Origin: Candidatus Niyogibacteria bacterium
GTDB lineage: Bacteria; Patescibacteriota; Minisyncoccia; HO2-45-28
DNA length: 64,000 nucleotides
Direction of reading: 5' to 3'
Assembly: GCA_016432485.1 (NCBI GenBank)
Contig: CP066691.1
Span: 740,944 to 804,943, forward strand
The position numbers were made by a program, and so were the translations under genes. Every line of letters starts with the position of its first letter. Within the stretch, counting starts at the first letter, position 1. Positions 23,501 to 26,200 of this stretch are shown one piece after another. Under the pieces are notes generated by a model. The model did not search any database. It was not told the DNA's origin and saw nothing but the letters and a program-made list of their open reading frames with translations.

Positions 23501-23687
23501 GTCGCAAAATTGTTTTCTTATGACGGTGCTCCGGGTCTTGAAAATTATAGTCGTTTTGTTCGCGAAAAATAACGCTCCATCGTTCCTCCTTCGCTACGCT
23601 CAAGAATTTCCTACTCGCTATTTTTCGCTTCAAGACTCTTTAATTTTCAAAGTCCCTTCGCAAGCCAACGAAAATCAATTTTGCGAC
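23501..23687. mobile_element. MITE-like ~187-bp element, copy 1 (TIRs gtcgcaaaattgttttc / gaaaatcaattttgcgac)
   Basis: ~90% identical to 26011-26200; own terminal inverted repeats plus internal inverted repeat cgaaaaataacg.../...cgctatttttcg. Confidence 0.7.
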
Positions 23688-23710
23688 GCTTGAGGACGAG
23701 TTTACTGTAG

Positions 23711-23847
23711 CGAATCCGGAAGATTTATTTTAGGGGCTCCGCAGGCGCTTTGCAGGGCGTCCCGCGGCTGCGGGACAAAGCGCCCAGGACTAGAGTTTGA
23801 ATTTCGCTGGAAATTCAAACGTACCCTAAAATGAATTTCCGGATTCG
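23711..23847 (+). ncRNA. candidate structured RNA / long imperfect palindrome (family not recognised)
   Basis: 25-bp closing stem cgaatccggaagatttattttaggg / ccctaaaatgaatttccggattcg enclosing nested hairpins gcgctttg/caaagcgc, gtcccgc/gcgggac and gtttgaatttc/gaaattcaaac. Confidence 0.35.
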
Positions 23848-23984
23848 CAAAATAAGCCGGAAAAAATGAATCCCGTTAGAAAGACATTAAATAATATTTC
23901 TAAATAAAAATATGTTAAAGAAAGTTGGACAAAGGGCTTTCTAACGGGATGAATTTTGCGGCGGTTATAGTAGAATAAAGAATA

Positions 23985-26012
23985 ATGGATAAGATAGAAG
24001 CTCAGAAGCAGATAGAAAAATTGAGGAAGGTGATAAATCACCACAGGTATCTTTATCATGTTTTGGACCGGCAGGAAATTTCAGATGAGGCCCTTGATTC
24101 TTTAAAACACGAATTGAAGAAGCTGGAAGACCGGTTTCCGGATTTGATTACTCCGGATTCGCCGACGCAGAGAGTGGGAGGAAAAGCCCTGAAAGAGTTT
24201 AAAAAGGTCAGGCACAATGTCCCGATGCTTTCGCTTGAAGACGCTTTTTTGCCCGAAGAAATAACGGACTGGATTTCCCGCAATTCTAAAGTTGTACGGG
24301 ACGCCGGGAGTGCCGCTCTTTTTGCCGAACTTAAGTTTGACGGTTTAGCCATGAGTTTGATTTACATAGACGGGGTTTTGGACAGGGCTTTAACCCGCGG
24401 AGACGGCAGAATCGGAGAAGACGTCACTCAAAATGCCAGAACGGTTGAAGCCATACCTCTGCGTTTGGAAATTCGCGGCAAGGTTTCCGAAGCCGTCCGT
24501 AAAGAAGCCGAAAAAATAATTAAAAAGGGAGTTATAGAGGCGAGGGGCGAGATTATAATAACCAAAAAAAATTTCGCCAAGGTTAATGCCGAACAAAAAA
24601 AGGCCGGCAAGCAAATTTTTGCCAATCCCAGAAATCTGGCGGCAGGTTCAATCCGCCAGCTTGATTCGGCAATTACCAAATCGCGCCGGCTGGATTTTCA
24701 CGCCTACGACCTGATTGCCGATTTCGGGCAGGTTCTGCATTCCGAGGAACACGAAATATTGTCGGCCCTCGGTTTTAAAACTGACGAAAAAGCGAAAATT
24801 TTTCATGATTTGAAATCCCTTTTTTCATATCGCGAAAAAATAGAAAGCGAACGGAGCCGTTTTGAATATGAAACAGACGGAATAGTCGTTAGCGTTGACG
24901 ACAATGATTTATTCGGGCGTTTGGGCGTTGTCGGCAAAACTCCGCGCGGAGCCATTGCTTTTAAATTTACTCCGCATGAATCAACGACCGTTATTGAAGA
25001 CATAATAGTGCAGGTGGGGCGCACCGGCGCCATTACGCCGGTCGCGGTATTGAGGCCCGTTCAAATAGGCGGGGTAACCGTGAGCCGCGCGACTCTGCAT
25101 AATGAAGATGAAATTAAAAGGCTTGATACGAGGATAGGCGACACTGTTATTGTCGGGCGCGCCGGCGACGTCATTCCGGATATTAAAAAAGTTCTTAAAG
25201 AATTAAGGCCGAGAAACACGGAAGAATTCCGTATGCCCAAAAAATGTCCGGTTTGCGGGGAAGAATTAAAGCGGGAAGGGGTAATTTTAAGATGTATTAA
25301 TCCGAAATGTTCCGCCCGTCACCGCGAGTCGCTGTATCACTTTGCTTCGCGCGGAGCTTTTGACATTGACGGCCTGGGCCCCAAAATAATAGACGCCTTT
25401 TTGGATAACGGCCTGATTCAAGACGCGGCCGACCTTTTCGCGTTGAAAGAAGGCGGTATACGGCCGCTTGAAAGATTCGGAGAAAAATCAGCCGAAAATA
25501 TCATAAAAGCCATACAATCCAGGCGCGCCATAGGTTTGGTTAGATTTATTTTGGGGCTGGGCATTCTTCATGTCGGGGAAGAAACGGCTCTGGATTTGGC
25601 CGAGCGATTCGCGTCTCTTAAAGCCCTGCAAAACGCTTCAAGAGATGATTTGGAAGCAATACCGAATGTGGGCGGGATTGTGGCCGAAAGCATTCATAAT
25701 TGGTTTCGGGACGCGCATAACAAAGAATTTTTAAAAAAACTTTTAAAATATGTTAAAGTTGAAAATGCGAGGGGAAAAACCAAGGGTCGGCTTTTTGCCA
25801 AGACCTTTGTTTTGACCGGAAGTTTGCGGTCGCTGTCCAGAGATGAGGCCAAATCCAAAATCCGCGCTCTTGCCGGCAATGTTTCCGAAGCGGTTTCGTC
25901 AAAAACCGATTTCGTGGTCGCCGGCTCCGATCCGGGCTCAAAATACGAAAAAGCCAAAAAATTGGGAGTTAAAATTATTGATGAAAAAGAATTTTTAAAA
26001 ATGTTAAGATAA
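23985..26012 (+). CDS. ligA: NAD-dependent DNA ligase LigA
   Basis: adenylation KxDG ([11 protein letters not shown]), OB fold, Zn-finger CPVCGEEL...C, HhH, C-terminal BRCT. Confidence 0.9.
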
Positions 26013-26200
26013 CCACAAAACTAATTTTCTTATGACAGCGCTTCAAAACTTGAAAATTATAGTCGTTTTGTTCACGAAAAATAACGCTCCATCGTTCCTC
26101 CTTCGCTACGCTCAGGAATTTCCTACTCGCTATTTTTCGTTTCAAAACTCTTTAATTTTTAAAGTTTTTCCGCAAGCCAACGAAAATTAGTTTTGTGGTT
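26011..26200. mobile_element. MITE-like ~190-bp element, copy 2 (perfect 19-bp TIRs aaccacaaaactaattttc / gaaaattagttttgtggtt), overlaps ligA stop codon
   Basis: direct-orientation copy of 23501-23687; TIR sequence differs from copy 1 but remains self-complementary. Confidence 0.7.

Follow-up and report, generated by a model that had tools for sequence, protein, structure and literature searches.

A probable MITE-like foldback repeat on both sides of ligA in a CPR genome

The closest described counterparts of the element reported here are the Correia elements of Neisseria, which target TA and carry two inverted-repeat end variants in symmetric and asymmetric combinations, the symmetric elements being cleaved by RNase III (PMC2649163). 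ERIC/IRU, YPAL, RUP and the Rickettsia palindromic elements are likewise MITE-like palindromic repeats of bacteria (PMC2229807, PMC10969869). Our element, H1, is of a kind already known, that of the small mobile foldback repeats of Neisseria and other bacteria, and a literature search on such repeats in CPR/Patescibacteria genomes found nothing relevant. CPR genomes are tiny and tightly packed, so whatever is tolerated between the genes of an operon is informative. At the level of sequence, the present locus shows that CPR genomes carry MITE-like foldback elements that appear to cross species boundaries nearly unchanged.

The window, by which we mean the whole 64-kb stretch of DNA analyzed, comes from an ultra-small Niyogibacteria/CPR bacterium and contains two copies of H1 (192–195 bp), one on each side of ligA. 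The pilus–ligA–gatC order is kept in all relatives compared, and a full-length variant of gatC is present in L001. The features of the locus are as follows.

23006–23452, + strand: last gene of the type IV pilus cluster (148 aa), placed by synteny with relatives and Logan contig L028; its stop codon lies 5 nt before the next feature
23457–23477, + strand: A1 / S' arm, CGCCGCAAAATTCATTTTTTC, similar to the copy-1-type left end
23481–23496, + strand: left half of a small palindrome, ACTCG-caaga-TCCTC-a, from the fold with flanks and direct reading
23497–23691, + strand: H1 copy 1, a ~195-nt foldback element in the pilin–ligA spacer, from direct and inverted repeats, fold and alignments; copy-1-type ends AAGCGTCGCAAAATTG... 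/ ...CAATTTTGCGACGCTT
23537–23652, + strand: conserved core of copy 1, equivalent to 26049–26164 in copy 2
23575–23615, + strand: apical, mostly unpaired region, CTCCATCGTTCCTCCTTCGC..., with one variable base
23692–23701: right half of the small palindrome, GAGGA-CGAGT, with copy 1 at its apex
23710–23848, + strand: H2, a separate three-way-junction hairpin element with a homologue at the ligA–gatC junction of L025 (12026–12188)
23872–23948, + strand: H3, a 77-bp MITE with TIRs of 12–14 bp (CCCGTTAGAAAG / CTTTCTAACGGG) and homologues in L026 and L002
23985–26012, + strand: ligA (NAD-dependent DNA ligase, 675 aa), bracketed by both H1 copies; position conserved in relatives
26010–26201, + strand: H1 copy 2, from the ligA stop codon to 12 nt before the gatC ATG; copy-2-type ends TAACCACAAAACTAATTTTC / GAAAATTAGTTTTGTGGTTA
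26214–26438, + strand: gatC (74 aa, C-terminally shortened), matching positions 1–50 of 66 of the Pfam GatC profile
26435–27880: gatA (Pfam Amidase), overlapping gatC
54436: gene whose start region, GGAGGAACGATGGA, is complementary to the H1 apical loop

A preliminary description of this DNA had reported two direct copies of about 90% identity bracketing ligA, and alignment bears this out, with 88% ungapped identity between 23506–23683 and 26018–26195 and 89.5% by blastn. It had also placed copy 2 across the ligA stop; the TAA at 26010–26012 indeed forms the first three bases of the stem, which ends at 26201, with the gatC ATG at 26214. The terminal arms of 20 nt are 95% complementary in copy 1 (19/20; 23497–23516/23672–23691) and 100% complementary in copy 2 (20/20; 26010–26029/26182–26201). 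The ends are thus self-complementary as described but not completely different from each other, as had been stated, being alignable (GTCGCAAAATT-GTTTTC versus ACCACAAAACTAATTTTC): of the 20 pairs of the basal helix, 13 are identical in the two copies, six are double-changed yet paired and one involves an indel or wobble. Over the whole element, 10 of 66 pairs are double-changed and still paired, against 1–4 in slid controls, and 98.5% of cells remain paired, which upholds the claim that pairing is kept through double changes. Wherever a double change is clear, both arms carry the same substitution.

The two copies diverge by ~4% in the core and by ~35% in the outer ~40 nt, so that the outer modules are only ~65% identical and the cores 96–98%. 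This contrast fits homogenization or recent spread of the core better than gradual covariation. Their apical ~46 nt differ at a single position. Across the four known copies, from three organisms, the core is 95–100% identical (54–57/57 and 51–55/58 by segment). Outside the elements, the alignment revealed no homology between the flanks of copies 1 and 2.

Each copy folds into one long, imperfect, rod-like hairpin with a near-perfect basal stem of 19–20 bp. On the + strand, the fold energies are −62.5 kcal/mol for copy 1 (z = −7.0) and −57.7 kcal/mol for copy 2 (z = −8.9), and none of 200 shuffles folded equally well. The sole ORF across H1 (52–57 aa) accumulates mostly non-synonymous changes, and its frameshift in L034 rules it out as a real gene; H1 also gives rise to P0121 and P0122, 52-aa "hypothetical proteins" that are artefacts. 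The Rfam search proposed in the preliminary description was run, and H1 matches no family: Rfam 15 at the gathering threshold returned tRNAs only over the window, and nothing credible at E ≤ 10 over 23400–26300. At E ≤ 1, the junction elements of L025, L004, L026 and L002 likewise matched no family. Matches to a sigma-70 promoter or a terminator in or beside H1 did not exceed shuffle expectation.

Searches baited with the spurious ORF that runs across the element recovered two further copies of H1, in L034 and L035. The L035 copy lies at the same ligA–gatC junction and is identical to copy 2 at 186/192 positions (96.9%), whereas the adjoining ligA and gatC are only 71.6% and 78.1% identical to those of the window. 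The LigA tree places L035 as sister to L004 (89.5% aa), whose ligA–gatC junction holds an unrelated hairpin element, and the nearest relatives of the window, L027 and L002, have empty junctions. Near-identity of the element across species, at 96.9% against 71.6% for ligA and on an incongruent tree, points to horizontal spread. The L035 flanks that adjoin H1 resemble the window rather than L004 (last ligA codons KMLR*, 12-nt spacer), which allele exchange by recombination would explain no less well than transposition. Copy 2 and L035 show zero covariation; given 28% ligA divergence, this indicates recency and not constraint.

The L034 copy is a hybrid that joins a copy-2-type left end to a copy-1-type right end, and its ends do not pair. 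Of the 40 positions in its left outer module, 36 agree with copy 2 and 25 with copy 1; of the 39 in its right outer module, 31 agree with copy 1 and 21 with copy 2. Across the core, 51–55 of 57–58 positions agree. The apical 40 nt, otherwise invariant in the three organisms, carry an inserted mini-hairpin in L034, and the sequence 3' of the hybrid is not ligA. On our analysis, this copy is best taken for a recombinant comparable to asymmetric Correia elements, and its form lends indirect support to recombination between H1 direct repeats, a possibility raised in the preliminary description.

Empty junctions occur in 5–6 related genomes (L002, L003, L005, L006, L026, L027), where the pilin–ligA gap is 1–28 nt and ligA and gatC overlap or lie 8 nt apart. 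The contigs L001 and L028 both terminate inside H1, as expected for a repeat. Our scans of sequence collections looked for exact 18-mer and 22-mer words of the apical loop, which proved too strict, as L034 and L035 differ from them in the last bases; since these scans missed L034, a JGI contig, the copy census is incomplete and its counts are a lower bound. Against genome contigs, the 22-mer found only the same species, in a contig ending inside copy 2; against metagenome contigs, the 18-mer gave 18 chance matches; and among viral contigs, exact words from H1, H2 and H3 found nothing or a chance match inside an ORF. Walking along the source genome added ~9 kb and no third copy, for a total of two in ~73 kb.

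Taken together, we regard H1 as a non-autonomous, non-coding foldback repeat of ~190 bp, MITE-like and of the Correia/ERIC type, that spreads horizontally among a small group of Niyogibacteria-like CPR bacteria in two old end-subtypes, a reading to which we give a probability of about two in three. Its MITE-like status, already proposed in the preliminary description, is supported by its small size and non-coding nature, its terminal inverted repeats, its presence or absence at orthologous sites, and the near-identical copies in other species. Weighing against a MITE, both copies in the window adjoin one gene, ligA, and only two were found in ~73 kb; classic MITEs are usually more numerous and scattered.

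According to this model, H1 has a core hairpin of ~115 nt that is nearly invariant wherever the element occurs, and an outer module, ~40 nt per side, of which no fewer than two old variants exist; these, the copy-1 type and the copy-2 type, are both self-complementary. Matched end types give a perfect closing helix of 20 bp, and mixed types, as in L034, no closure. The element would spread horizontally and land in tiny spacers between operon genes, here on both sides of ligA; copies 1 and 2 would share their core through recent common origin or gene conversion, and differ at their ends because they belong to different end subtypes.

H1 may move by transposition into TA or palindromic sites through an unseen transposase or, alternatively, by whole-junction exchange through recombination after DNA uptake. 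The core unit of copy 2 (26012–26199) has TA on either side, as does the L035 copy, and the L034 copy has TA on its left; the TA flanks of copy 2 are themselves self-complementary and could be part of the inverted repeat. Copy 1 is flanked by inverted CCTC/GAGG and not by a direct repeat, and no unambiguous target-site duplication was found around the H1 copies. Among the neighboring genes scanned, which are housekeeping genes, there was no transposase, integrase or parent IS. When co-transcribed with pil-ligA-gatCA, symmetric copies of H1 would form a long dsRNA stem; this stem would be a substrate of the RNase III type and may hold the upstream stop codon near the downstream start codon.

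The preliminary description had argued from compensatory change to selection on pairing, whether of an RNA stem or of recombinase-recognised ends, and had named end variation without pairing as evidence to the contrary; we find that argument too strong. Pairing is indeed preserved (10/66 pairs double-changed), but the end types are old and shared with L035 and L034 (copy-2-type ends recur there with hardly any change, in L034 on the left), which argues against compensatory evolution in situ at these two loci; formally, the mixed ends of L034 are also a case of variation without pairing. We considered whether the ends arose by insertion into unrelated pre-existing palindromes and rejected this for the 20-bp helix, since the ends align and recur elsewhere; we keep it for the CCTC/ACTCG extension around copy 1 alone.

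Conservation of the loops and core, together with strand asymmetry, also fits a functional RNA and thereby weighs against the mobile-repeat reading. H1 might be a host-selected structured RNA, acting in cis within the pil-ligA-gatCA transcript or produced as a small RNA from the more stable − strand, with sequence-constrained loops, pairing-constrained stems and incidental mobility; we judge this possible, though unlikely. Loops and core are much better conserved than the stems: by our count on the alignment, copies 1 and 2 differ at ~4 of ~58 unpaired positions as against 16 of 66 pairs, and the three organisms share the same apical 40 nt save for the L034 mini-hairpin. The − strand fold is more stable than the + strand fold by 12–15 kcal/mol (12–14 kcal/mol for copies 1 and 2), an asymmetry intrinsic to the element. 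G.U asymmetry did not single out one strand as the transcribed one: four one-sided changes between the copies become G.U on the + strand, and the conserved positions favor the − strand by 13 kcal/mol. The H4 family likewise keeps its strand asymmetry in either orientation. At alignment columns 103/180, L035 and L034 have an A.C mismatch where copy 1 shows a repair to G-C and copy 2 a repair to A-U.

Positions 23576–23590 in the apical loop are, in addition, complementary over all 15 nt to the SD and start codon of the 54436 gene (BLAST E = 0.035 for the window); this single match is, however, an a posteriori observation. A host RNA also sits poorly with the patchy, phylogeny-incongruent distribution and the six empty related junctions, with the persistence of a hybrid with unpaired ends in L034, with zero covariation between copy 2 and L035 despite 28% ligA divergence, and with the lack of an Rfam match and of a convincing promoter or terminator.

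The upstream pilin–ligA spacer holds a nest of three further hairpin families besides H1. The A1 / S' arm is 21/21 complementary to GAAAAAATGAATTTTGCGGCG (23860–23963 minus H3), with a 15/15 inverted repeat at 23457–23471/23949–23963, and this stem closes the whole upstream block of 510 nt, for which the fold of the entire region gives z = −12. Within the block, the copy-1 hairpin extends outward into its palindromic flanks (ACTCG..CCTC / GAGG..CGAGT, 23481–23701). H3 is demonstrably insertional, being flanked by a clear target duplication (the direct repeat ATGAAT; 23866–23871 and 23949–23954) and having an uninterrupted site in L034 (GGAAAAAATGAATTTTGCGCCG). H2 and its L025 homologue differ by double changes at 11 of 44 pairs that remain paired; comparison of the H2 and H4 families between species gives ~75% identity and numerous covarying pairs, which is what vertical descent looks like in this clade, unlike H1. 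The elements appear to recombine into hybrids and to stack as nested hairpins at essential-gene junctions. It is decidedly unlikely, though conceivable, that H1 and H2, H3 and H4 make up an undescribed guild of hairpin-closed, strand-specifically structured mobile CPR elements that home to spacers of a few nucleotides between co-translated genes of an operon (here at the ligA stop codon) and cross species almost unchanged, perhaps as transformation-borne junction cassettes or via an RNA or ssDNA intermediate whose fold is selected. On the same reading, the invariant apical loop could also work in trans, as an antisense to the SD and start of the gene at 54436.

Self-complementarity of the ends could also be kept mechanically, by intramolecular template switching between the arms of the quasi-palindrome during replication, which would copy changes across. 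The outer helices of 20/20 and 19/20, the identical substitutions on both arms, the same A.C mismatch fixed in both directions in copies 1 and 2, and the reach of the copy-1 palindrome into its flanks all agree with such a process. Pervasive arm-to-arm correction would, however, erase loops and bulges, and these (CTTATGAC / CGCAAGCCAACG and the apical region) persist, imperfect and identical in all copies. Since the end types occur across species and were not made in situ, and the L034 hybrid was left uncorrected, we hold this explanation to be very unlikely.

A local segmental event, either tandem duplication of ligA–H1 followed by deletion or gene conversion across ligA, is highly improbable. 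It would account for two directly oriented copies within 2.5 kb and no other in 73 kb, for cores 96–98% identical, and for the L034 hybrid, which has the form of a recombination junction between a copy-2-type and a copy-1-type element. Against it, flank homology stops at the element edges, the outer modules are ~65% identical and their subtypes occur separately elsewhere, and the L034 hybrid is not followed by ligA. The ligA-tail-like ACTGTAG in front of H2 is a weak likeness and too short to be taken for a remnant of the ligA 3' end.

That the repeats are integron attC-like sites with ligA as a gene cassette is refuted, and has next to no chance of being right: imperfect palindromes that differ in sequence, keep their structure, follow a gene in direct orientation and start at its stop codon are a superficial likeness only, the RYYYAAC / GTTRRRY core sites are missing (ends ACAAAAC / GTTTTGT and GCAAAAT / ATTTTGC), 190 nt exceeds known attC sites, and ligA is a core gene whose synteny is conserved in every relative, with no integrase among the scanned neighbors. 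A DGR template/variable repeat pair was rejected since G<->A and T<->C differences occur on both arms, as mirror images across the hairpin, and are not confined to the adenines of one copy; for this and the 6S-like, retron-like and ribozyme readings, the defining features are missing or Rfam gave no match.

Returning to H1 as a mobile foldback repeat, elements of this type break short-read assemblies at the junctions they occupy (L001, L028). Should the symmetric stems turn out to serve as processing sites or as coupling devices, they would offer a simple handle on operon expression in unculturable organisms.

Compared with known systems, H1 resembles the Correia elements (CREE / NEMIS) in architecture and behavior only, and we do not claim membership. 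Both are small, non-coding foldback elements with inverted repeats and no transposase of their own, the Correia elements measuring 104–157 bp. Both are found at gene junctions, with frequent co-transcription in the case of Correia elements. TA is the insertion target of Correia elements and also borders H1 copy 2. Each kind comes with two end variants, which combine into symmetric and asymmetric elements, and each varies in presence between related genomes. H1 differs in its host phylum (CPR), in being longer and folding over its whole length into one rod-like hairpin, and in its very low copy number, two in 73 kb as against >100 per Neisseria genome. The ERIC/IRU, YPAL, RUP and Rickettsia elements are, like H1, imperfect palindromes at intergenic or junction sites (100–170 bp), transcribed with their neighbors and patchily distributed, and some supply upstream stop codons, as H1 copy 2 does for ligA. 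Unlike H1, they usually reach many copies per genome, and we know of no such family with ~97% conservation across species that share ~72% identity in the flanking essential genes.

REP/BIME sequences share with H1 the precedence of hairpin over sequence, stems that vary by subfamily but stay complementary, and nested, clustered placement in intergenic spacers. REPs are 20–40 nt long, share the conserved head GTAG and come with an associated RAYT gene, whereas H1 is 190 nt long, has no GTAG head, and no RAYT gene was seen beside it. With attC sites, H1 shares imperfect palindromes, structure over sequence and direct orientation downstream of genes; it differs from them in core sites, in size, in the absence of an integrase, and in that ligA is not a cassette.

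The two-copy hairpin repeat that the preliminary description placed around ligA is real and was carefully observed. The copies of this ~190-bp foldback element, H1, lie in the pilin–ligA spacer (copy 1) and at the ligA–gatC junction (copy 2), and no third copy was found within the 64-kb window:

23506–23683: H1 copy 1, homologous stretch, in direct orientation with copy 2
23497–23516/23672–23691: inverted arms of copy 1, 20 nt, 95% complementary
26018–26195: H1 copy 2, homologous stretch, in direct orientation with copy 1
26010–26029/26182–26201: inverted arms of copy 2, 20 nt, 100% complementary

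The copies are 88% identical without gaps (89.5% by blastn), and since the H1 interior is also self-complementary, each constitutes one imperfect hairpin of ~195 nt. Calculated RNA folds reached −62.5 kcal/mol (z = −7.0) for copy 1 and −57.7 kcal/mol (z = −8.9) for copy 2 on the plus strand, and −74.8 and −71.9 kcal/mol, respectively, on the minus strand, with 0/200 shuffles folding equally well. The ligA stop codon opens copy 2 and the gatC ATG lies 12 nt beyond its end, confirming the reported overlap with ligA and proximity to gatC. A small palindrome (ACTCG-caaga-TCCTC-a / GAGGA-CGAGT) has copy 1 exactly at its apex, and the composite that holds this copy runs from 5 nt past the stop of the final pilus-cluster gene to 21 nt short of the ligA ATG. 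gatC itself (26214–26438) is shortened to 74 aa, corresponding to Pfam profile positions 1–50 of 66, and overlaps gatA (26435–27880, TTG start). In L001, a MAG contig of the same species (1500–1815), the gatC C-terminus is full-length and is followed by different DNA, a gatC–gatA difference that is a strain-level deletion or insertion.

The ends of the two copies, previously described as completely different, are homologous and alignable: on the left, GTCGCAAAATT-GTTTTC aligns with ACCACAAAACTAATTTTC, and the right-hand ends show the mirrored pattern. Applying the structure of the copy-2 fold to the alignment of both copies yielded 66 pairs with 98.5% of cells paired and 10 double changes that keep pairing (a GGG/CCC triplet turned into AAA/UUU, six pairs of the basal helix and one inner pair), compared with just 1–4 when the partner was slid by 1–3 columns as a control. 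All four one-sided changes are wobble pairs. Only ~4% of positions differ in the ~115-nt core, whereas ~35% differ in the ~40-nt outer part at either end, within which the unpaired blocks TTTTCTTATGAC and CGCAAGCCAACGAAAAT are the same in both copies. That the cores are so similar and the ends so divergent fits a recent arrival, or gene conversion acting across the 2.5 kb that separate these direct repeats. The proposed compensatory change thus holds as a long-term property of the H1 family, because only hairpin-forming end types (copy-1-type and copy-2-type) exist, but does not come from covariation between these two loci.

Beyond the identical protein of a Candidatus Niyogibacteria MAG, encoded on an 837-kb contig, the next LigA relatives are 71–74% identical, and relatives retain the gene order pilus cluster–ligA–gatC. 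In contigs L002, L003, L005, L006, L026 and L027, the gap before ligA is 1–28 nt, and gatC overlaps ligA or follows it at a distance of 8 nt; with both junctions this tight, both H1 sites are empty. Contigs L004 and L025 carry ~170–190-nt hairpins between ligA and gatC, unrelated in sequence to H1.

An ORF of 52–57 aa runs through H1 in the same frame in copies 1 and 2. Used as search bait, it retrieved two predicted “proteins” of other assemblies, on the short single contigs L035 and L034. Our scans of sequence collections used exact apical words, which miss both contigs, so H1 copy numbers are lower bounds; the source genome was read for H1 copies over ~73 kb of 837 kb. Public short-read assemblies of this organism end inside copies 1 and 2 (contigs L028 and L001), and L029 ends at window position 9037, in a gene-poor gap of 497 nt where another repeat may lie.

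L035 has the arrangement ligA–H1–gatC with flanks as in copy 2. Its H1 is identical to copy 2 at 186/192 positions, compared with 71.6% for ligA (72.5% aa) and 78.1% for gatC. These two genes are ~90% L004-like, and window-like only in the last ligA codons and the 12-nt spacer. In a tree of the C-terminal 240 residues of LigA, L035 is sister to L004 (89.5%), the carrier of another junction element, and the nearest to the window are L027 and L002, both with empty junctions. H1 is thus 97% identical between copy 2 and L035 with zero covariation, whereas the comparison families show ~75% identity and abundant covariation across species (H2, window versus L025; H4, L034 versus L004), which argues for recent horizontal arrival of H1 rather than constraint. 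L034, whose LigA is 64% identical to that of the window, carries a hybrid: on the left, its outer module agrees with copy 2 at 36/40 positions (copy 1, 25/40), and on the right with copy 1 at 31/39 (copy 2, 21/39). Its core is ~95% identical, its basal and middle helices are unpaired, and its apical loop holds a small additional GC hairpin. This hairpin frameshifts the H1 ORF, which we therefore reject as a true gene; the database “hypothetical proteins” P0121 (52 aa) and P0122 (44 aa) are H1 translations, not genes.

H1 could conceivably be a structured RNA selected by the host. Its loops are better conserved than its stems, one mismatch has been repaired in both possible ways, and each element family has one strand consistently 13–15 kcal/mol more stable, in either orientation. 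Moreover, all 15 nt of the invariant apical loop at 23576–23590 (TCCATCGTTCCTCC) are complementary to 54426–54440 (GGAGGAACGATGGA). That site holds the start codon and SD of a 140-aa gene at 54436, which is unannotated and flanked by two TrwB/VirD4-like ATPase genes. The match may be coincidental (BLAST E = 0.035 for this window), may mark an antisense target or may be left over from the gene start of a parent element. Against host selection stand the patchy distribution of H1, which does not follow the host tree, the existence of a hybrid and the lack of covariation between copy 2 and L035. Arm-to-arm template switching would also produce mirrored changes, but leaves the conserved internal loops and the uncorrected L034 hybrid unexplained. 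attC sites, DGRs and other known RNA families fail on defining features.

The upstream spacer contains further hairpins. Positions 23457–23963 form one closed folded domain (z = −12) enclosing H1 copy 1, H2 and H3, with a closing stem of arm A1 (23457–23477) and GAAAAAATGAATTTTGCGGCG; both resemble copy-1-type H1 ends, and the motif occurs at just these four window sites. The additional families are:

23710–23848: H2, three-way-junction hairpin; homologue at L025 12026–12188
23872–23948: H3, 77-bp MITE with inverted repeats CCCGTTAGAAAG/CTTTCTAACGGG, 23866–23954 with its ATGAAT flanks; homologues in other species at L026 5576–5672 and L002 7165–7262 (minus strand)
L034 1036–1250 and L004 12032–12219 (minus strand): H4, fourth hairpin family, ~190–215 nt

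H2 lies 5′ of ligA in the window and at the ligA–gatC junction in L025, and has no Rfam match. Its stems covary strongly (11/44 pairs), and it carries boxes of conserved sequence (CCGCAGGCGCTTTGCARGGYGT ... ACAAAGCGCCSAGGAC ... CGTAC). The junctions that the H3 homologues occupy within the pilus cluster differ, and one homologue is inverted. ATGAAT on either side of H3, together with the uninterrupted site in L034 (1258–1286, GGAAAAAATGAATTTTGCGCCG), identifies it as a MITE with a 5–6-bp target duplication. H4 conserves its CTTTCGGAGGCG...CGCCGAGAACG core with different closing stems; its orientation relative to ligA is opposite in L034 and L004, yet in each case it is the same strand of H4 that folds more stably, by ~15 kcal/mol. 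A closed multi-branch hairpin of ~188 nt also occupies the pilT–pilC junction of L025 (4835–5022), and operon junctions of this clade seem often to carry long closed hairpins.

Elsewhere, the window is most strongly structured at 31840–32100, which contains a perfect 22-bp inverted repeat (31920–31941/31963–31984) and a hairpin, AAACGGCTCAACGG..CCGTTGAGCCGTTT, that recurs at 44229–44268; the motif AAGCTATTGAACCATTGC is common to ~31893 and 54321–54345. Two further repeats are duplicated gene 5′ regions: one of 82 nt (16669–16750/22440–22521, 84% identical) reaches into the pilin signal sequence, and one of 40 nt (37188–37227/37400–37439, 98% identical) lies directly 5′ of two adjacent ORFs. 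An (A/T)AAGCT-rich repeat of 34 nt, CTATAAGCTAAAAGCTAAAAGCTATAAGCTG, is present at 21177–21210, 59735–59768 and 61358–61391, and a similar string, ATGCTACAAGCTACAAGCTAC, opens an L025 gene.

The junction hairpins (H1 copy 2, that of L004 and both of L025) start 0–15 nt past the upstream stop codon and end 6–13 nt before the downstream ATG. An SD-like motif was scored at only 16/59 window gene starts. A TATAAT-like hexamer lies 7–12 nt upstream of the ATG at many of them, suggesting that mRNAs with very short leaders or none are widespread. We infer that only junction insertions that fold shut may be tolerated, because the fold would hold stop and start codons adjacent. The 20-bp H1 helix in the operon transcript is a putative RNase III-type substrate.

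The label “MITE-like” fits, and H1 is best filed as a Correia-like member, in a CPR lineage, of the known bacterial MITE/foldback-repeat class. On this view, H1 is a non-autonomous foldback repeat. Its core is conserved and its ends come in two old variants, each self-complementary, which can combine symmetrically or asymmetrically. TA flanks (window copy 2, L035 and the left side of L034) suggest transposition, and the window-like flanks of L035 point to recombination that exchanged the junction as a whole; the neighbouring genes scanned include no transposase. What is unusual for H1 is its very high conservation across species and its natural end-type hybrid. Correia elements of Neisseria target TA and have inverted-repeat ends in two alternative sequences, and RNase III cuts symmetric elements and spares asymmetric ones (PMC2649163). 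H1 matches this description in its two end variants and their symmetric and asymmetric combinations.
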